From NCBI GenBank assembly GCA_017456005.1, contig JAFTLJ010000014.1, positions 17,310 through 81,309 of the forward strand: a DNA stretch of 64,000 nt, read 5' to 3'. A program made the position numbers and the translations under genes. This DNA is from Clostridia bacterium. GTDB taxonomy: Bacteria; Bacillota; Clostridia; Oscillospirales; CAG-272. The notes below the pieces were generated by a model. The model did not search any database, was not told the origin of the DNA, and worked only from the letters and a program-made list of their open reading frames with translations. Below are positions 5,512 to 63,745 of the stretch, piece by piece (the first letter of the stretch is position 1; the number at the start of each line of letters is the position of its first letter).

Positions 5512-6114
5512 TCATTTTGTAACACACCAAATAGCTAATGGCACATAGCAGCTCACTAATACGAGTCTTTGCCAAAGACCGCCGTATCTCAAAATAGTAT
5601 TTGCGAATTTTTCTTTCTCCCCCATAATGAAGAAGCAGAAGAACAAGAACGTTGCAATAAAGCTAACAAGCGAGATCGCTCCCATAATTATATCTCCCGC
5701 TTGAAACTGCATTATTGCCAAGAGCAATGGTACAGCAATTAATGTCATAAATCCGATCGCAGAAGCACCGCCGTGAATTTTAGTCAGTGCATCCTCGTCT
5801 TGTCTGTTCTCGTTCAATGGACAAAAGCCCGAAATAATCTCACAGCCGATACCGTATATTGCAAGTAATATCCATATTGCGATTGCCAAGCCACCGATTT
5901 TTTCTTGATACAACGCATACGGAGCAATACAGAAAACGACACCCGAGAGTATGCACCACACATTGTAAATCCACTTCACAGGACTTTGCCGTGAGCCCAG
6001 TACCGAGAGTGCCATTTCTTTATGCTTATAGTTTGGATAAAAATGCGCAAGCAACAATGGTAGTAGATTATCTGCTACCAAAATAATAATCCATAATATT
6101 TTCATGTATTTCAC
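5512..6114 (-). CDS. hypothetical polytopic membrane protein
   Basis: 200-aa ORF with about 6 hydrophobic segments. GAGGTG RBS upstream. No motif I can name with confidence (possibly DUF998-like). Confidence 0.6.
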   Translation of the reverse strand: MKYMKILWIIILVADNLLPLLLAHFYPNYKHKEMALSVLGSRQSPVKWIYNVWCILSGVVFCIAPYALYQEKIGGLAIAIWILLAIYGIGCEIISGFCPLNENRQDEDALTKIHGGASAIGFMTLIAVPLLLAIMQFQAGDIIMGAISLVSFIATFLFFCFFIMGEKEKFANTILRYGGLWQRLVLVSCYVPLAIWCVTK

Positions 6115-6141
6115 CTCGCCAAATTCTTATTTATCCTTCTG

Positions 6142-6452
6142 TTTATCGCCAGTTTCGCCTTTGTATTACAAAGGCATAGGGCAAAGCCCATACCCCTATT
6201 GTTGTGCGTAACCTAAGGCTCCCTCCGGGAGGGAGCTGGCGCCGTAGGCGGCTGAGGGAGAGCGCGTTACAATGAAATTAGTACAAACCTAAAGTCACGC
6301 GGGCTCCTTCCGTCACGCTTCGCAGCGAACCCCCAAAGCTCATTTCATTCGCTTCGGGGAACCCCAGCCGCGTGCCACCTTCCTCCCGGAGGAAGGCTTT
6401 TTGCTTTCTCCCATTATAACACACATCGGCAGAGAAAACAACATCTCTGCCG
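6142..6452 (-). repeat. repeat family B, copy B1 (promoter-bearing structured leader element)
   Basis: About 310 bp, collinear with 44131-44461 in the same orientation. It ends at the RBS of the downstream minus-strand ORF. Confidence 0.85.
6413..6441 (-). promoter_or_regulatory. promoter inside repeat B1
   Basis: Minus strand reads TTGTTT-N17-TATAAT with TGT extended -10. The -35 lies in the loop of the CGGCAGAGA/TCTCTGCCG hairpin. Confidence 0.5.
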
Positions 6453-6463
6453 AAAATTATGTG

Positions 6464-6541
6464 TCGCAGACCGTCGAGGACGCCGGTCCCTACAATTTTG
6501 TAAACATCCTTATGAGAATAAACCTAAAGACGGCTTTTTAT
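6464..6541 (-). repeat. repeat family A, copy A2 (inverted partial copy)
   Basis: Its reverse complement aligns with 5341-5417 at roughly 80 percent identity by eye. The match includes an identical 26-nt hairpin segment. Confidence 0.8.
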
Positions 6542-7748: not shown

Positions 7749-7900
7749 GCAATTGCGCGCAAATCGTGCGCAATTGCTTGTTCAAAAAAAGTTTTCCTTA
7801 TACAAAAATGCCCGATTTTCGGGCATTTTATAGTTGCCGAAGGCAACTTTTTTATATAGGCAGAAGAAAGAACAAAAAAGGCTCCCTCCAGGAGGGAGGC
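7749..7900. repeat. cluster of four independent hairpins
   Basis: GCAATTGCGC/GCGCAATTGC (7749-7777); ATGCCCG/CGGGCAT (7808-7826); GTTGCC/GGCAAC plus T6 (7833-7854); GGCTCCCTCC/GGAGGGAGGC (7880-7900, a motif shared with repeat B). Confidence 0.6.
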
Positions 7901-8096
7901 TATAACAATACACAGGGTACGCCCATACCATTATTTTGTTTCTTCGATAAGAACATCACGCTTTTGCCTGTGGGATTTTTATAGGAAGAAAAAGAAGGGG
8001 TAGATATCTATTTTGCGTTACTTTTATCATTATATATATAACGGGGCATCGCTATCGGGATTCAACTCGCGGTTGTGGAATACAACGTTGTCTCTA

Positions 8097-35123: not shown

Positions 35124-35424
35124 TTGTTGGGATAGAATTCTTCGAACGCATAATTTTTGAAGAATATTGCTATTTTATTGAAATTGCGTGATTGCTAATT
35201 AACGATAGAAATAAAATTTGAAGCAACATATAAAGCAACATATACTGACTTCGTCCCTCCACGTTTACAGCGTCACATAGCATTTGCTCATTCTAAAAAG
35301 TAGACGTACTTAATTGCTAAGTCAGAAAAAGAAAGCTTTGTCGAAAACCTTAGGAACAGATACTTTTACCAAAGTTTTTTGCCAAGATTTTTTCAAAAAA
35401 AGCGGAAATATGAGAAAAAATCAA

Positions 35425-35940
35425 ACGAAATGTCTTCTACTTGCGCTGGGATATGCGACTCGCCTTTAGCCCTTGATCGAAAATTCCCGAAGCATTTGCT
35501 TGAGGTAAAAGGGAAGAGCGTATTTGATTGTATGATTGACGATATTGACACGCTTATTATCACGTGAGACTATCTGCTTGACTGCAGACTCACTGAATTT
35601 ATAAATACACAAAAGCCCAAAACAGCTTATGCGTTATGCGATGCTATTGGACGAATGAGCAGAAGCTTCTCAAATGTGACATCGTAACTATCGATGAAAA
35701 CGACAAGATACTCGAAAGGGCAGAGAAATCGTTGCACTCGTGACGCGTTAATACGTACCTCCTTTCTACTTTTATGCAAAAGGAGGATATAAATCCTATT
35801 TGAACATGCATCTATGCCGGTTTTAGTGTTGATACTCCCTGAAAATGTGATTCTGCAAACAGACGGGTGTTTATGCGATGCAAATGCCGGGTGGGTATCA
35901 TAATATAGTAAAAATCGAAAGCTACGAAAAGTACAGACCA
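35425..35940 (+). pseudogene. decayed, internally deleted copy of the sugar-1-P nucleotidyltransferase gene at 40752-41486
   Basis: Nucleotide collinearity with 40752-41470 is visible by eye (KCLLLALGYATRL-stop). The ATG is lost, stop codons are present, and a central block of about 230 bp is missing. The upstream leader 35335-35424 is also duplicated (compare 40655-40751). Confidence 0.8.
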
Positions 35941-40613: not shown

Positions 40614-40751
40614 GGAAGTTTTACAAAAAAACTTAATACATAAAACCAAAAGCTTTGGCGAGAACCTTAGGAACGAACACGTTTGACTAAAGTTTTTTTG
40701 CCAAGCTTTTTTTCAAAAAAGCGAAAAAAACAGCGGAGGAATGAACTAAAC

Positions 40752-41486
40752 ATGAAATGTCTTATACTTGCGGCGGGATATGCAACTCGCCTTTACCCAC
40801 TCACGGAAAACTTCCCGAAACCTTTGCTTGAAGTAAAAGGGAAGACCATACTTGACTGGCTGATTGACGACATCGACACGCTCGGCGCGGTTGACGAATA
40901 CATTGTTATCTCAAACCATAAATTTGCTCACCATTTCGATAAATGGGCTGCTGAAAAAACGCAGAAAGTAACCGTTGTTGACGACGGCACAAGCACGAAC
41001 GAAACCAGGCTCGGTGCTGTTAAAGATATACAATATGCTATTGATAAGCTTGGGCTCGATGATGATATACTCGTAATTGCAGGTGATAATTTGCTCGACT
41101 TCAGCCTCACTGAGTTTATCAAATATGCGAAAGCTAAAAATAGCTCCTGCATCATGCGTTACTATGAAGCAAACGAGCAGAAGCTTCTCAAATGCGGCGT
41201 CGTAACGATCGATGAAAACGATAAGATACTCGAAATGACAGAGAAATCTCCTACACCTGCAACGCATTGGTGCACGCCTCCTTTCTATTTTTACACGAAA
41301 GAAGATGCAAAACTTGTTCAGGCAGGAATAGATTCAGGATGCGGCGTTGACGCTCCCGGGAGCTACATCGCATGGCTCTGCAAGCAGACGAACGTTTATG
41401 CTATGGAAATGCCCGGCAAACGCTATGACATAGGCAACCTTGAAAGCTACGAAAAAGTGCAGAAGGAGTATAACGGAATATGCTGA
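40752..41486 (+). CDS. sugar-1-phosphate nucleotidyltransferase
   Basis: MKCLILAAGYATRLYPLTENFPKPLL, an NTP-transferase signature. ATG after GGAGG. Confidence 0.85.
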   Translation: MKCLILAAGYATRLYPLTENFPKPLLEVKGKTILDWLIDDIDTLGAVDEYIVISNHKFAHHFDKWAAEKTQKVTVVDDGTSTNETRLGAVKDIQYAIDKLGLDDDILVIAGDNLLDFSLTEFIKYAKAKNSSCIMRYYEANEQKLLKCGVVTIDENDKILEMTEKSPTPATHWCTPPFYFYTKEDAKLVQAGIDSGCGVDAPGSYIAWLCKQTNVYAMEMPGKRYDIGNLESYEKVQKEYNGIC

Positions 41487-42562
41487 CACCTAACGTAAAT
41501 CTCACAGGAAAAACGGTTCTCGTTACGGGTGCGGCTGGCTTTGTAGGCGCTAACCTCGTAAAAGAACTTCTTAACACAGTAGAAAAGATACACATCGTCG
41601 GTATCGACAATATGAACGATTACTACGACGTGTCCATCAAAGATTACCGCCTCGCTGAAATAGAAAAACTCGCGGCGGAAAAGACTGGTTGCAAATGGAC
41701 TTTCGTGAAGGGCAATATCGCCGATAGAGCGCTTATCGACAGACTTTTCGCCGAATACGGATTTGCGGTAGTCGTAAACCTTGCGGCTCAGGCGGGCGTA
41801 AGATATTCCATCACAAACCCCGACGTGTACATAGAATCCAATATCATCGGCTTCTATAACATACTAGAAGCATGCCGCGCAAATCCCGTTGAGCATCTTG
41901 TTTACGCGTCAAGCTCCTCGGTATACGGTTCAAACAAGAAGATACCTTATTCCACCGACGATAAGGTTGACAATCCCGTGTCCCTCTACGCGGCTACGAA
42001 GAAAAGCAACGAGCTTATGGCTCACGCTTACTCGAAGCTTTACAATATCCCGTCCACGGGACTTCGCTTCTTCACGGTATACGGTCCTGCAGGCCGTCCC
42101 GATATGGCTTACTTCGGATTTACGAACAAGCTTCGTGAGGGTAAGACTATTGAAATATTTAACTTCGGTAACTGCAAACGCGACTTTACATACGTTGACG
42201 ATATAGTTACAGGCGTTAAGCACATTATGCAGAACGCTCCCGAAAAAGTAACGGGTGAAGACGGACTTCCCGTACCTCCTTACAGAGTTTACAATATCGG
42301 TAACAACAGCCCCGAAAATCTGCTTGACTTCGTTGATATCCTTCAGCAGGAGCTTATTTGTGCTAAAGTTCTTCCCGAAGACTATGACTTCGAAGCTCAT
42401 AAAAAGCTCGTTCCAATGCAGGCGGGTGACGTTCCGATAACGTATGCTGATACAAGTGCGCTTGAAAGAGATTTCGGCTTCAAGCCGAACACGAGCTTGA
42501 GAGAGGGCTTGAGGAAGTTTGCTGAGTGGTACTATGAGTTCTATCTCGAAAAAGGTGAATAA
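41480..42562 (+). CDS. NAD-dependent epimerase, UDP-glucuronate 4-epimerase-like
   Basis: GAAGFVG, SSSSVYG, YAATKKSNE (YxxxK) and RFFTVYGPAGRPDMA. Confidence 0.7.
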   Translation: MLTPNVNLTGKTVLVTGAAGFVGANLVKELLNTVEKIHIVGIDNMNDYYDVSIKDYRLAEIEKLAAEKTGCKWTFVKGNIADRALIDRLFAEYGFAVVVNLAAQAGVRYSITNPDVYIESNIIGFYNILEACRANPVEHLVYASSSSVYGSNKKIPYSTDDKVDNPVSLYAATKKSNELMAHAYSKLYNIPSTGLRFFTVYGPAGRPDMAYFGFTNKLREGKTIEIFNFGNCKRDFTYVDDIVTGVKHIMQNAPEKVTGEDGLPVPPYRVYNIGNNSPENLLDFVDILQQELICAKVLPEDYDFEAHKKLVPMQAGDVPITYADTSALERDFGFKPNTSLREGLRKFAEWYYEFYLEKGE

Positions 42563-42576
42563 ATATATAGATTACC

Positions 42577-42606
42577 AAGGACATCTGCATGCAGATGTCC
42601 TTTTTG
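42577..42606 (+). terminator. terminator at the end of the polysaccharide operon
   Basis: AAGGACATCTGCATGCAGATGTCCTT followed by TTTT. Confidence 0.75.
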
Positions 42607-42695
42607 CCAATTGTCAATGGCTCACCGATACATTGACAATATGGTGCTTTCGTGGTATCATAAATATACATTCAGCTACAAACTTGCGAGGATTT

Positions 42696-43136
42696 ATGTA
42701 TATGGATGATATTAAGCAAAAATTATGCCCTAATTGCCGGGCGAATGTGGAAGGCTTGGTGCACAGGTGCAATTGTTGCGGTGCAACTCTTGATAAAAAG
42801 CCGTCGTTTTTCATTTGGCATACTTATATGACACAGGAAAGCGGAGATTTACAAGCTTTAACCAAAAAAATCTTTGATGAGAAAGCTGTGCCCGAAAACC
42901 CGGATCATCTTGAGCATGTGAAGAAAATCATTTTCGATATATATTGCTATCCGCAAGATATGCTTGGGGATATGACAAACAAGGTGATCTGCTATAGAAC
43001 GAAAAAAGAATGCCGTATCAGAATTGTTTTAGATTATGAGAAGTATATATCTTCAAATTCTTTTGAAAAAACAGAGATGATTACCGATGGTATTATTGCA
43101 GGGATAGAACTGTTTGAAAGTAGATTTAAAAAATAA
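42696..43136 (+). CDS. hypothetical protein with N-terminal CxxC...CxxC zinc-ribbon
   Basis: 146-aa ORF (MYMDDIKQKLCPNCRANVEGLVHRCNCCGATL...). It is the last gene of the element before the right junction. Confidence 0.55.
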   Translation: MYMDDIKQKLCPNCRANVEGLVHRCNCCGATLDKKPSFFIWHTYMTQESGDLQALTKKIFDEKAVPENPDHLEHVKKIIFDIYCYPQDMLGDMTNKVICYRTKKECRIRIVLDYEKYISSNSFEKTEMITDGIIAGIELFESRFKK

Positions 43137-43146
43137 TAAATCATGC

Positions 43147-43175
43147 AAAAAAGCCTTATGTATCAAGGCTTTTTG
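43147..43175. terminator. bidirectional hairpin terminator at element right end
   Basis: AAAAAGCCTT/AAGGCTTTTT. It contains the stop codon of the truncated spoVT' ORF. Confidence 0.6.
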
Positions 43176-43351
43176 CTGTTTAAACCCGCTCTATCGCCAA
43201 AATCGATCATCGCTATGCAGAACCTTTCTGTCTGTGTCAACGTCATCTGCGACGGGTCGCCCTCGCGAATACGCATGGTTCTTCTTATTTCTTTAGGTAT
43301 AACGACTCTTCCGAGGTCGTCGATACGTCTTACAATACCGGTAGCTTTCAT
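43163..43351 (-). CDS. truncated SpoVT' (33 native codons plus a 29-codon element-encoded tail)
   Basis: 62-aa ORF MKATGIVRRIDDLGRVVIPKEIRRTMRIREGDP + SQMTLTQTERFCIAMIDFGDRAGLNSKKP. Confidence 0.6.
   Translation of the reverse strand: MKATGIVRRIDDLGRVVIPKEIRRTMRIREGDPSQMTLTQTERFCIAMIDFGDRAGLNSKKP
43227..43270. other. right junction of element (core CGGGTCGCC 43253-43261)
   Basis: The core is identical to 9627-9635. The element-side arm is GTGTCAACGT (43234-43243). The 11-mer TCTGTCTGTGT (43227-43237) also occurs at 9606-9616. Confidence 0.8.
43253..43351 (-). pseudogene. spoVT: spoVT 5' segment (codons 1-33, AbrB-type swapped-hairpin N-terminus)
   Basis: MKATGIVRRIDDLGRVVIPKEIRRTMRIREGDP is nearly identical to the B. 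subtilis SpoVT N-terminus. GGAGG RBS upstream. Confidence 0.9.
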
Positions 43352-43421
43352 ATATATAAATCCTCCGTAAAAATCTTTTTAATTTTTGCAAAATTTGTCT
43401 GTTCAAGCGGTGGTATTATCA

Positions 43422-43450
43422 AGTATACCCTGTATTTTGCAAAATATGCG
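43422..43450 (-). promoter_or_regulatory. candidate spoVT promoter (forespore sigma-F/G-like -35)
   Basis: Minus strand reads GCATA-N17-TATACTT, a partial match to GHATR/CATnnTA-type consensus. Confidence 0.25.
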
Positions 43451-43559
43451 TTTTTTTGCGGATGGATTTATATTAAAAAAGCCGCCACAATGGCGTGGTG
43501 TTCTGATCGGAGAAATTGTGTAGCGCACGGTAGGGGCGAACATCCGAGCAAACTTGGCG

Positions 43560-43660
43560 GTTCGCCCGCGGGAGACCACAGGTCTCCACTACGGATAGGG
43601 CATAATTGCTATGAAGGAAAAATAGCAAGCCCCGACAGACCTTCAAATCTGTCGGGGCTC
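43560..43660 (+). repeat. repeat family A-related segment with terminator hairpin (43629-43658)
   Basis: GGAGACCACAGGTCTCC hairpin, then CATAATTGC, then GCCCCGACAGA..TCTGTCGGGGC. Confidence 0.65.
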
Positions 43661-43663
43661 GTT

Positions 43664-44116
43664 TTACGTATTATTTTGATTGGAGAGCAGTGCAGTAAAA
43701 GACAATTCCAAGATAGGACTGGGGAAGTTTTCTTCTATCCACCCCATCCTTTTACTGTCGTTATCAAACCAAACTAAAAAATCCACATTTTTATCGGGGG
43801 CAAATGCATTTGAACGGTCAAAGCATGGTCCGCTTATCTTGCCGTTTAATAATGTGCCAACAATATGATACCATCCGCCGTAATTATCCTTTTCGTTGGT
43901 TGTACCGAATACTTCTCCCGGCTTTCGGGGATCAATCCCTAAGCTGTTTAGAAAATCTACAACAGCAGCCGAGCAAGACATAATTGCATTAGGAAAACGT
44001 TGACAACGTTCGCAAGAGCATACTTCACTTGTTGTGAAGGAGAAATTACTTGTATAATAAGCTCTTGTTTTTTCAACATCTACATCAACCGTATATCTAC
44101 CGAATTGAAATATCAC
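43664..44116 (-). CDS. hypothetical protein
   Basis: 150-aa ORF with a GTG start 8 nt after GGAGG. The composition is realistic. No family was recognised. Confidence 0.6.
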   Translation of the reverse strand: MIFQFGRYTVDVDVEKTRAYYTSNFSFTTSEVCSCERCQRFPNAIMSCSAAVVDFLNSLGIDPRKPGEVFGTTNEKDNYGGWYHIVGTLLNGKISGPCFDRSNAFAPDKNVDFLVWFDNDSKRMGWIEENFPSPILELSFTALLSNQNNT

Positions 44117-44130
44117 CTGTATATCCTCCT

Positions 44131-44461
44131 TTTATCGCCAGTTTCGCCTTTGTATTACAGCGTTGCAAGCGGCGCATGCTTCGGGCAAAGCCCATACCCC
44201 TAAAGATGCACGAACGCGTCCAAAGGCTCCCTCCGGGAGGGAGCTCCCGACGAAGTCGGGTGAGGGAGAATGCGTGACAATAAAACATATCAAAACTTCA
44301 AAGTTACGCGGGCTCCTTCCGTCACGCTTCGCAGCGAACCCCCAAAGCTCATTTCATTCGCTTCGGGGAACCCCTGCCGCGTGCCACCTTCCTCCCGGAG
44401 GAAGGCTTTTTTGCTAACCCCATTATACCACAAATCGGCAGAGAAAACAAGTTCTCTGCCG
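44131..44461 (-). repeat. repeat family B, copy B2
   Basis: Collinear with 6142-6452. The core 44307-44415 differs from 6298-6405 by one substitution and one T indel. Confidence 0.85.
44422..44450 (-). promoter_or_regulatory. promoter inside repeat B2
   Basis: Minus strand reads TTGTTT-N17-TATAAT with TGG extended -10. Confidence 0.5.
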
Positions 44462-44520
44462 ATATTTTGTACCCTCTATTTCTCCGCTAAGAATGCAGAG
44501 AGAATGGCGGCTTTTCGGCT

Positions 44521-63649: not shown

Positions 63650-63745
63650 GCTCCTTCTCATAAGGCTGTTAAATTAAAATTGATTCGCAGTAGACAAAGA
63701 ATTAACCCCGACAGATTGCAAGGTCTGTCGGGGTTGGTTTTATTC
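63650..63745 (+). repeat. repeat family A, copy A3 (with terminator hairpin 63706-63733)
   Basis: TTCTCATAAGG...GCAGTAGACAAAGAATTAACCCCGACAGA..TCTGTCGGGGTT, collinear with 5367-5490 but lacking the central hairpin. Confidence 0.75.

Follow-up and report, generated by a model that had tools for sequence, protein, structure and literature searches.

The question raised by this locus is why two copies of an intergenic repeat, which we call repeat B, should have kept a core of 108 nt almost unchanged while much of the remainder has diverged. Both copies, each of about 330 nt, lie in a 64-kb stretch of contig JAFTLJ010000014.1 of a Clostridia bacterium (hereafter the window, in whose own numbering positions are given), at 6135-6460 (copy 1) and 44131-44470 (copy 2), and an earlier note on this DNA had taken such uneven conservation as the mark of a functional RNA. 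We think that a different answer is probably the right one, namely that each copy is a composite, non-autonomous intergenic repeat, whose core consists of the left arm (LA) of a dispersed palindrome plus a 48-nt hairpin that entered the loop of one of the hairpins of this arm (H2) recently. Our verdict on the window element is therefore that it is a non-autonomous repeat copy carrying a putative promoter, and not a riboswitch or a small RNA (sRNA).

The near identity of the core, announced as one substitution and one T-run indel, was borne out by global alignment: 6298-6405 and 44307-44415 share 107 matches, with one mismatch (A/T, CCCCAGCCG versus CCCCTGCCG) and one gap column (a run of T5 versus T6), which makes 98.2% identity. 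The idea that the rest has decayed is correct for the flanks taken as a whole, since the same alignment gives 71% identity for the gene-proximal part (6135-6297 versus 44131-44306) and 80% for the promoter-side part (6406-6460 versus 44416-44470), but this decay is not uniform. Outside the core, a 20-nt hairpin (H5, 6217-6236 and 44225-44244) is also identical between the copies, as are blocks of 20 nt (6179-6198 and 44183-44202) and 29 nt (6142-6170 and 44131-44159) in the 3' module called M3 below. The 17-mer AAGCGTGACGGAAGGAG, allowing up to three mismatches, matches the window twice where 0.12 matches are expected, so that there are two copies only. Copy 1 lies upstream of a minus-strand gene for a DUF998 membrane protein of 200 aa (5512-6114), and copy 2 upstream of a minus-strand gene (43664-44116) whose 150-aa product has no Pfam family.

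Read on the minus strand, each copy is made of three modules: M1, a hairpin with a putative TGnTATAAT promoter; M2, a palindrome formed by LA, a spacer and a right arm (RA); and M3. The palindrome has many relatives. Metagenomes were scanned with a 19-mer taken from the 3' portion of the core, a pattern that leaves the 5' half of H2 outside; this returned 35 loci, about 30 of them true. With the exception of the window's own locus (L001), the true ones all read GCCTTCCTCCGGGAGGAAGGTGGCACGCG followed at once by AAGCGTGACGGAAGGAGCC (that is, GGTGGCACGCG and then AAGCGTGAC), without the 48 nt GCAGGGGTTCCCCGAAGCGAATGAAATGAGCTTTGGGGGTTCGCTGCG, and almost none of them shows a change in the 5' half of H2. 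When one genome per species was scanned with the pattern GGTGGCRCGCG(N0-1)AAGCGTGAC, at least 120 matches came from at least six phyla, on the Firmicutes side from Oscillospiraceae, other Clostridia, Lachnospiraceae, Selenomonas and Mitsuokella, and elsewhere from Bifidobacterium vansinderenii, Sphingomonas, Mesorhizobium, Burkholderiales and a Planctomycetota metagenome-assembled genome (MAG). LA, of about 60 nt, is the same in some 150 copies from Clostridia, Negativicutes, Bifidobacterium, Alpha- and Betaproteobacteria and Planctomycetota. The LA-RA elements are a palindromic family dispersed across phyla. The 340-nt element had no BLAST match in phage and plasmid collections, and the arm was missing from 5,426 E. 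coli genomes.

The order of parts in LA is H1, then H2 (TGG-CACGC-GAA-GCGTG-ACG, which holds a GCGAAGC heptamer), then a G-rich, GGAGG-like strand. There follow a spacer of 10 to more than 400 nt, a complementary C-rich strand, H4, which is variable in sequence and often closed by C-TTCG-G, and H5, roughly the reverse complement of H1; RA is the inverted, more variable counterpart of LA. A right arm matching the reverse complement of H1 is present in 61 elements, with lengths of 94-521 nt. In minimum free energy (MFE) folds H1 usually pairs with H5 around an inner junction of H2, H3 and H4, and in copies from Proteobacteria the pairing of the arms extends over nearly their whole length. The 8-bp hairpin CCUUCCUC-CGG-GAGGAAGG pointed out in the earlier note (6378-6396 and 44387-44405) is real in both copies, and the H4 stem of copy 2 shows compensatory changes relative to that of copy 1.

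While the sequence of H1 varies across the family, its pairing is kept, and the same maintenance of pairing despite sequence change is seen in H4 and H5: individual folds of 40 distinct elements gave 856 Watson-Crick pairs out of 861, the other five being G·T (a MAFFT consensus folding of the right arm was misaligned and uninformative, and per-sequence folding replaced it). The complementary strand folds better by 2.5 kcal/mol on average, the motif strand being the better one in 11 of the 40. By crude gene calls, 54 copies point the same way as the downstream gene and 36 the opposite way, the figures for the upstream gene being 62 and 25; copies are found in all four gene arrangements, after genes, between convergent genes and on either strand. 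Near-pure Watson-Crick pairing, the lack of a consistent strand advantage and the occurrence in all orientations are properties of a DNA palindrome, and not of a strand-specific RNA.

What the rest of the family does not have is the 48-nt segment (6321-6368 and 44330-44377) which both window copies carry inside the H2 loop, and which folds as a self-contained hairpin extending H2. At the copy-2 locus, where alone strain polymorphism was tested, the proteins encoded beside copy 1 having no database record, the contig L169, which comes from another sample and carries the same genes on either side, agrees with the window in 2112 of 2121 aligned bases (99.6%), a single gap of 48 columns apart. Three loci with a spacer and RA of the copy-2 type (L033, L116 and L156) are also without the segment, as is the ortholog of the copy-1 locus (L157). 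The insertion is a recent, strain-level indel and, being missing in all five of these loci, it postdates the divergence of the two copies. If the insertion is left out of account, LA does not differ between the window copies and L031, L033 and L035, which come from other assemblies, so that the identity of LA between the window copies needs no local explanation. In other words, about 60 nt of LA are identical in both copies because they are nearly invariant across the family, and the 48 nt because the insertion is younger than the divergence of the strains. To read uneven conservation as constraint is then sound for the 60 nt or so outside the insertion, which are invariant across genomes and phyla, while for the 48 nt identity reflects recency. 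The alternative that had been named as a refutation, identity through recent gene conversion, fits the 48 nt. The presence of the insertion in both copies is best explained by gene conversion or copying between the repeats, as far as can be judged from the sequences. Exchange between repeats is likewise suggested by two related loci: L031 is the copy-2 locus, yet has H4 and M3 like those of copy 1, and in L167, at the same locus, the same M1 and M3 enclose a gene for a 165-aa Y1 transposase-like protein (L167:2269-2766) instead of LA-RA. This gene scores 30.5 bits against Pfam Y1_Tnp (cut-off 23) and 77.7 against NCBIfam REP_Tyr_transpos (cut-off 80); its coding sequence also holds two GTAG-type palindromes (GTAGGGGCGATTCACGAATCGCCC and its inverse).

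The spacer of the palindrome can hold a gene. In nine fetched loci it is an open reading frame (ORF) of about 120 aa for a DUF559 nuclease (Vsr-like, PD-(D/E)XK), and all nine DUF559-like ORFs in the fetched loci adjoin the LA motif. In six of them (L042, L076, L125, L134, L143 and L144) the ORF has 122 aa. The start codon lies 6-8 nt past the G-rich strand, which is therefore the Shine-Dalgarno sequence of the ORF, and the last codons extend into RA. In L101 and L111 a related ORF stands behind the same hairpin and TGnTATAAT module as in the window, and in Sphingomonas soli (L099) it lies between the arms in the direction opposite to the conserved arm. The ORFs match Pfam DUF559 (PF04480) with E = 6e-30 to 5e-23 and, below the cut-off, the NCBIfam entry "DUF559 domain-containing protein"; a PDB relative is 3hrl. 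An independent test from the protein side (tblastn against plasmids) gave 14 records with DUF559 genes, of which eight were examined. Inverted arms of the same design surround the ORF on plasmids of Novosphingobium (66 nt, 89% complementary), Sphingobium and S. parapaucimobilis, the inner hairpins being ATTTGC-GCCA-GCAAAT, CCATGC-GAA-GCATGG and CCGGC-GAA-GCCGG, and one Novosphingobium replicon has six arm places and one ORF. In two cyanobacteria, Picosynechococcus and Pseudanabaena (arms of 35 nt, 97% complementary), the ORF lies between inverted arms made of a hairpin, CTAG and a G run. The flanks of the Neisseria gene are direct repeats, and Azospirillum and Photobacterium have such hairpins on one side only. 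ORF-bearing members of the LA-RA family have a DUF559 gene nested between the arms. One DUF559 allele (P0085) occupies the same MgtC-MgtC-DUF559-GH36 locus in 10 samples, so that a DUF559 gene can be a stable resident of a single locus, as the genes for REP-associated tyrosine transposases (RAYT; REP, repetitive extragenic palindrome) are. Milman et al. (2023) found DUF559 proteins to be enriched among predicted targets of programmed inversion (odds ratio 14), which fits flanking inverted repeats. The literature that we searched holds no description of DUF559 tied to such repeats, which is no proof of novelty.

Two side observations concern these genes. Homologs of the L125 ORF include thousands of proteins more than 85% identical, in clusters of up to 1270 members and mostly on contigs of 0.5-1.5 kb, which suggests that metagenome assemblies often break at the ORF and its arms. 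L173 differs from L171 by a strain-variable insertion of about 167 nt (L173:1975-2150), located downstream of the conserved DUF559 locus, with terminal inverted repeats (GGCATCACCGCGCAATTC...GAATTGCGCGGTGATACC), a different, MITE-like element (MITE, miniature inverted-repeat transposable element).

Put together, these data would be compatible with the following scenario. LA would be constrained as folded DNA (hairpin or cruciform) that is recognised, used as a substrate or cleaved by the DUF559 nuclease or a host factor, which would maintain or copy the elements as RAYT does for REP doublets forming hairpins (REPINs), and it would in addition supply the translation signals of the DUF559 ORF. 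The window copies would be ORF-less relics whose own promoter drives transcription across a hairpin of about -90 kcal/mol and on into accessory genes that are unrelated, and any effects on those genes, such as stabilisation of the mRNA 5' end or insulation from antisense transcription, would be secondary. The suggestion in the earlier note of a protein-binding platform may be right at the level of a DNA hairpin, where it is more likely than at that of RNA. We also raise, tentatively and as a possibility that we do not rate as probable, the broader idea that DUF559 proteins are the dedicated partner enzymes of REP dimers of the CGTC type (discussed at the end), and form a second system akin to REPIN-RAYT, based on a nuclease outside the HUH class and found across Firmicutes, Actinobacteria, Proteobacteria and Cyanobacteria, in which recognition of the folded arm drives copying or homing by break repair. 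If this were so, the nuclease would recognise a GCGAAGC-type mini-hairpin with CGTC and CCA tags, the ORF would be copied or homed into ORF-less doublets through break repair, and the window core would be one recognition arm.

The rival that came first historically, a cis-regulatory RNA (riboswitch, attenuator or thermosensor) located in the 5' leader of the downstream genes, now appears very improbable to us, although it is not without arguments. A TGnTATAAT box lies just upstream of the core, the window copies, and all their leader-type relatives for which a downstream ORF was called, are co-oriented with the downstream gene, and the minus strand folds with unusual stability (z = -3.4 for the core, -2.4 and -5.1 for the full leaders). 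Moreover, H1 has a C-rich 5' arm for which there is a choice of partners, its own 3' arm or either of the G-rich copies that flank H2, one of which is the Shine-Dalgarno sequence; in 19 of 27 distinct members of the family, its pairing with GGAAGG after H2 is 5 bp or longer. This is a weak hint that the alternative pairing may serve RNA-level control in ORF-bearing copies, weak because the runs involved are homopurine and homopyrimidine. Against an RNA leader speaks the company that the repeat keeps: the composite stands upstream of at least six different genes, whose products have no function in common (DUF998, DUF2812, DUF6304 and three without a Pfam family), and the LA-RA unit, in the arrangements listed above, has no fixed orientation upstream of related genes. 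The five G·T pairs among 861 do not amount to strand-specific covariation with G·U, and downstream of H5 the leader offers neither a terminator nor a partner that would sequester the ribosome-binding site (RBS). No relevant match to Rfam 15 was obtained for the window, for both copies or for 38 homologous loci, at the gathering score or with E up to 10, the only matches being at chance level for the copies (E up to 10) or unrelated (a Gut-1 adjoining the element in L003 and a tRNA-Sec in L060). The pairings described in the earlier note as mutually exclusive are mostly inside the 48-nt segment, which no other family member has and which is missing in the 99.6% identical strain, where the downstream gene is the same. 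As to its long-range closing helix CACGCGG...CCGCGUG, it is complete in copy 1, but copy 2 reads CCGCGUA, and it competes with CACGC/GCGUG, the pairing found in all homologs. Two related candidates were dropped as well. For a T-box leader, AAGGUGGCACGCG resembles the T-box sequence (AGGGUGGNACCGCG box; GGUGGCAC) by eye only, and we found neither a Stem I or specifier nor a terminator/antiterminator pair, while Rfam gave no match to its T-box model at E up to 10. A small ORF across the core (6278-6424 and 44290-44433; 47-48 aa) would have a start codon located within the -10 box or upstream of it, and what is conserved is the nucleotide sequence, in non-coding contexts.

The other rivals accept a repeat and disagree about what moves or keeps it. 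Given L167, where M1 and M3 flank a Y1 transposase-like gene at the same locus, M1, LA-RA and M3 might together be a non-autonomous derivative of the IS200/RAYT type moved by a Y1 transposase, with LA-RA as its cargo; the diversity of the genes downstream of the composite would fit, as would the left end of IS200, which has a terminator hairpin and then a promoter. We find this doubtful, since it accounts for the spread of the composite and not for the conservation of LA across phyla, M1 also stands before DUF559 copies devoid of M3 (L101, L111 and L134), the NCBIfam score is under its cut-off, and the ends and target sites of the composite are undefined. Somewhat less likely still is that the 48-nt segment is a small mobile or templated insertion which entered both H2 loops independently. 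Its identical position in the two copies and its self-contained hairpin agree with this, and it is bounded by GGGGTTC...GGGGGTTC, read from the sequence, and partly repeats the adjoining GCGAAGCG; however, the 48-mer has no other site in the window and none in 156 other loci with about 150 H2 hairpins, an exact 20-mer from it finds no match in viral contigs, and the identity of the LA sequence on either side of it in both copies provides the homology that conversion would need. Finally, the elements might have a REP-like role for the host, as bidirectional terminators, insulators or mRNA-stabilising hairpins, DUF559 genes being merely among the repeats. On the plus strand H1 followed by T5-6, and also the M1 hairpin, score as terminators, a T run follows H5 in many copies, a solo H5-like hairpin with T6 occurs at 7879-7902, and elements are more often downstream of a co-directional gene than of an opposite one. 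A terminator, however, needs a GC-rich hairpin and a U run, which leaves the identity of the 20 nt of H2 across phyla and the paired arms unexplained, and the precision with which the DUF559 ORF is nested, with its Shine-Dalgarno-like strand in LA and its last codons in RA, is unlikely to be due to chance; we thus give this last rival little credit.

Several points nevertheless weigh against the reading that we prefer, that of a non-autonomous member of a DNA palindrome family, and should be acknowledged. The promoter, the interaction between nuclease and repeat and the gene conversion are all inferred from sequence, and two insertions of a mobile 48-mer would be indistinguishable from gene conversion. 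The invariance of H2 is partly a matter of ascertainment, part of H2 being required by both scans. No DUF559 gene is present in the 64-kb window, and the single conserved locus of P0085 speaks for stability, not mobility. We saw no sign of a target duplication at the AGCC...GGCT ends, and found no empty site. Wherever a downstream ORF was called for a leader-type copy, the two run in the same direction, and for the window copies the minus strand gives the better folds, so some role at the RNA level is possible.

The features of the two copies are collected in Table 1. We infer a promoter in each window copy from the extended -10 boxes and from their conservation in relatives: TGTGnTATAATGGGG is kept in the leader subfamily and also occurs upstream of the DUF559 ORFs in L101, L111 and L134, and a hairpin related to M1 precedes the DUF559 copies in L101 and L111. 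A simple promoter scan missed these boxes because the -35 hexamer is poor.

Table 1. Features of repeat B copies 2 and 1 in the window (strand: -, minus; a dot, no strand assigned)
Feature	Position	Strand	Remarks
M1 hairpin, copy 2 (CGGCAGAGA...TCTCTGCCG), before promoter	44436..44461	-	bidirectional, terminator-like; kept in L031, L033, L157 and L169
Extended -10 box, copy 2, TGGTATAAT (TGnTATAAT), putative	44422..44430	-	predicted transcription start about 12 nt before H1
H1, copy 2, outer hairpin of left arm (CCTTCCTC-CGG-GAGGAAGG)	44387..44405	.	imperfect inverted repeat of H5; T6 next on the plus strand, hence terminator-like; stems covary across the family
H2 5' half, copy 2 (GGTGGCACGCG)	44378..44388	-	reverse complement gives the CCA tail of a CGTC-type REP
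48-nt hairpin insertion, copy 2, in H2 loop (GCAGGGGTTCCCCGAAGCGAATGAAATGAGCTTTGGGGGTTCGCTGCG)	44330..44377	-	not in other family members, nor in L169
H2 3' half and G-rich strand, copy 2 (AAGCGTGAC GGAAGGAGCC)	44311..44329	-	G-rich strand is the counterpart of the Shine-Dalgarno sequence of the DUF559 ORF
Variable spacer, copy 2	44270..44310	.	position of the DUF559 ORF in autonomous copies
Right arm, copy 2	44225..44269	.	C-rich CTCCCTC; H4 CCCGAC-TTC-GTCGGG 44246-44260; H5 44225-44244
M3, copy 2 (TAGGGGTATGGGCTTTGCCC ... TGTAATACAAAGGCGAAACTGGCGATAAA)	44131..44202	-	17-nt extra piece 44161-44177; RBS and GTG start of the 150-aa gene next
M1 hairpin, copy 1	6427..6452	-	
Extended -10 box, copy 1, TGTTATAAT, putative	6413..6421	-	
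H1 and H2 5' half, copy 1	6369..6396	.	H1 6378-6396; H2 5' half 6369-6379
48-nt insertion, copy 1	6321..6368	-	one substitution relative to copy 2; L157 ortholog without it
H2 3' half and Shine-Dalgarno relic, copy 1	6302..6320	-	
Spacer and right arm, copy 1	6217..6301	.	spacer 6263-6301; CTCTCCCTCA 6253-6262; H4 6238-6252; H5 6217-6236
M3, copy 1	6135..6198	-	then start of the DUF998 membrane-protein gene

Other repeats were noticed in passing. Directly upstream of copy 1, at 6466-6493, lies a GTAG-tagged REP-like hairpin (minus strand GTAGGGACCGGCGTCCTCGACGGTCTGC) which the L157 ortholog does not have, and GTAG palindromes resembling it are present in a number of related MAG loci, L070, L077 and L115 among them. 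The solo hairpin at 7879-7902, GGCTCCCTCCAGGAGGGAGGC, is like H1 and H5, and with the T6 after it on the minus strand it is terminator-like. Related GC-rich terminator hairpins (CCCCGACAGA...TCTGTCGGGG) lie inverted and 20 kb apart at 43619-43657 and 63706-63744, of which the first, past the end of the 150-aa gene, is a bidirectional terminator. Direct repeats at 35332-35930 and 40649-41455 form a series, 5.3-5.5 kb apart and 72-88% identical, which suggests a diverged duplication of a gene block near nucleotide-sugar genes. Around copy 2 (42500-44120, L001) there are small accessory genes, coding for a MazE/AbrB-like protein of 62 aa and an Imm44-like protein of 144 aa, and a protein of 540-552 aa with weak matches to sigma-70 regions 2 and 4; leader-type copies in other loci likewise precede small orphan proteins. 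The Gut-1 match in L003 (L003:1394-1463) scores 51.6 bits against a gathering score of 50 and lies about 140 nt upstream of the LA-RA element; its hairpins, separated by UGAAAU, faintly recall the GAAUGAAAUGA loop of the 48-nt insertion.

For the window itself, the consequence is that a candidate riboswitch or sRNA is removed, and that its mosaic conservation can be read as the sum of constraint on a repeat family, a very recent indel and exchange between copies. ORF-less copies with a putative promoter further indicate that accessory genes of gut Clostridia can acquire transcription signals and long structured 5' untranslated regions (5' UTRs) from such repeats. The apparent association of DUF559 with palindromes is a by-product of this work, based on limited sampling, but we consider it of moderate to high interest. 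The DUF559 family is very large, and its annotation still goes no further than "endonuclease domain-containing protein". The nesting of its genes between arms in several phyla makes two questions testable, that of the enzyme of such REPs and that of the role of DUF559. It may also account for the presence of DUF559 among the predicted invertible genes of Milman et al. (2023). Which enzyme, if any, serves the CGTC-tagged REPs was left open by Di Nocera et al. (2013).

How does this family compare with known repeat systems? An integron attC site was considered and rejected: the element ends in GCCTYCC...GGRAGCC, there is no GTTRRRY core, and the window holds no cassette array. Correia elements and the ERIC/IRU repeats (enterobacterial repetitive intergenic consensus/intergenic repeat unit) are imperfect palindromes of 100-190 nt, intergenic and co-transcribed with their neighbours, which can give promoters and long RNA hairpins. 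LA-RA has no sequence relation to them, and neither a terminal TA duplication nor terminal repeats of the transposase type were identified in it. As in MITEs, ORF-less and DUF559-bearing copies share their LA and RA arms, in the manner of the terminal repeats of an autonomous element, while at one locus (L167) the cargo is replaced rather than absent. The terminator-like hairpin of M1 followed by a putative promoter, the structured leader before a small nuclease or transposase gene and the Y1 transposase-like gene in the place of LA-RA in L167 all recall IS200, which, however, has no counterpart of LA-RA, and the ends of the composite are undefined.

The REPIN-RAYT system, whose Y1 transposase gene is single-copy, is similar in its organisation. 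Its inverted doublets fold, like ours, as a long hairpin, an enzyme gene is flanked by the repeats, there are many ORF-less copies for each enzyme-bearing one (as on the Novosphingobium replicon, with its six arm places), and the enzyme can sit at a single, vertically stable locus, as the DUF559 allele does. The differences are that the enclosed enzyme is of the PD-(D/E)XK type (Vsr-like, PF04480) and not an HUH/Y1 transposase, that the RAYT-like gene of L167 is flanked by M1 and M3 and not by LA and RA, and that neither arm has a GTAG tag; to our knowledge, no transposition chemistry is known for DUF559.

The described kind nearest to LA-RA is the head-to-head dimer of CGTC-tagged REPs. According to Di Nocera, De Gregorio and Rocco (2013; PMC3733652), these REPs have an unpaired head, CGTC or else TGTC or CCTC, and a CCA tail, a stem of 8-9 bp beginning with two A-T pairs and a loop of 4-5 nt, form predominantly head-to-head dimers with spacers of 20-100 bp whose ends are often complementary, are biased towards Alphaproteobacteria, and "apparently lack a dedicated transposase". 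Our family departs from this description in its canonical H2, with a 5-bp stem (CACGC/GCGTG) and a 3-nt loop (GAA/TTC), to which the window adds 48 nt; in an extra outer hairpin on each arm (H1 and H5); in its members from Clostridia, Negativicutes and Bifidobacterium, phyla not covered in PMC3733652; and in the DUF559 nuclease ORF between the arms in nine loci and three sphingomonad plasmids, no transposase having been found. In other respects the agreement is good. The reverse complement of H2, CGTC-ACGC-TTC-GCGT-GCCA, shows both tags, a CGTC head left unpaired and a CCA tail: the GACG after H2 (CGTC on the complement) is present in all copies, those of the window included, and the TGG before H2 gives the (G)CCA tail on the complement. 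In the 61 LA-RA pairs the CGTC heads face the spacer, whose ends pair as H3, and the family is abundant in Alphaproteobacteria, where the Novosphingobium arm CGTC-ATTTGC-TGGC-GCAAAT-GCCA, with a 6-bp stem starting in AT and a 4-nt loop, fits the CGTC type closely.

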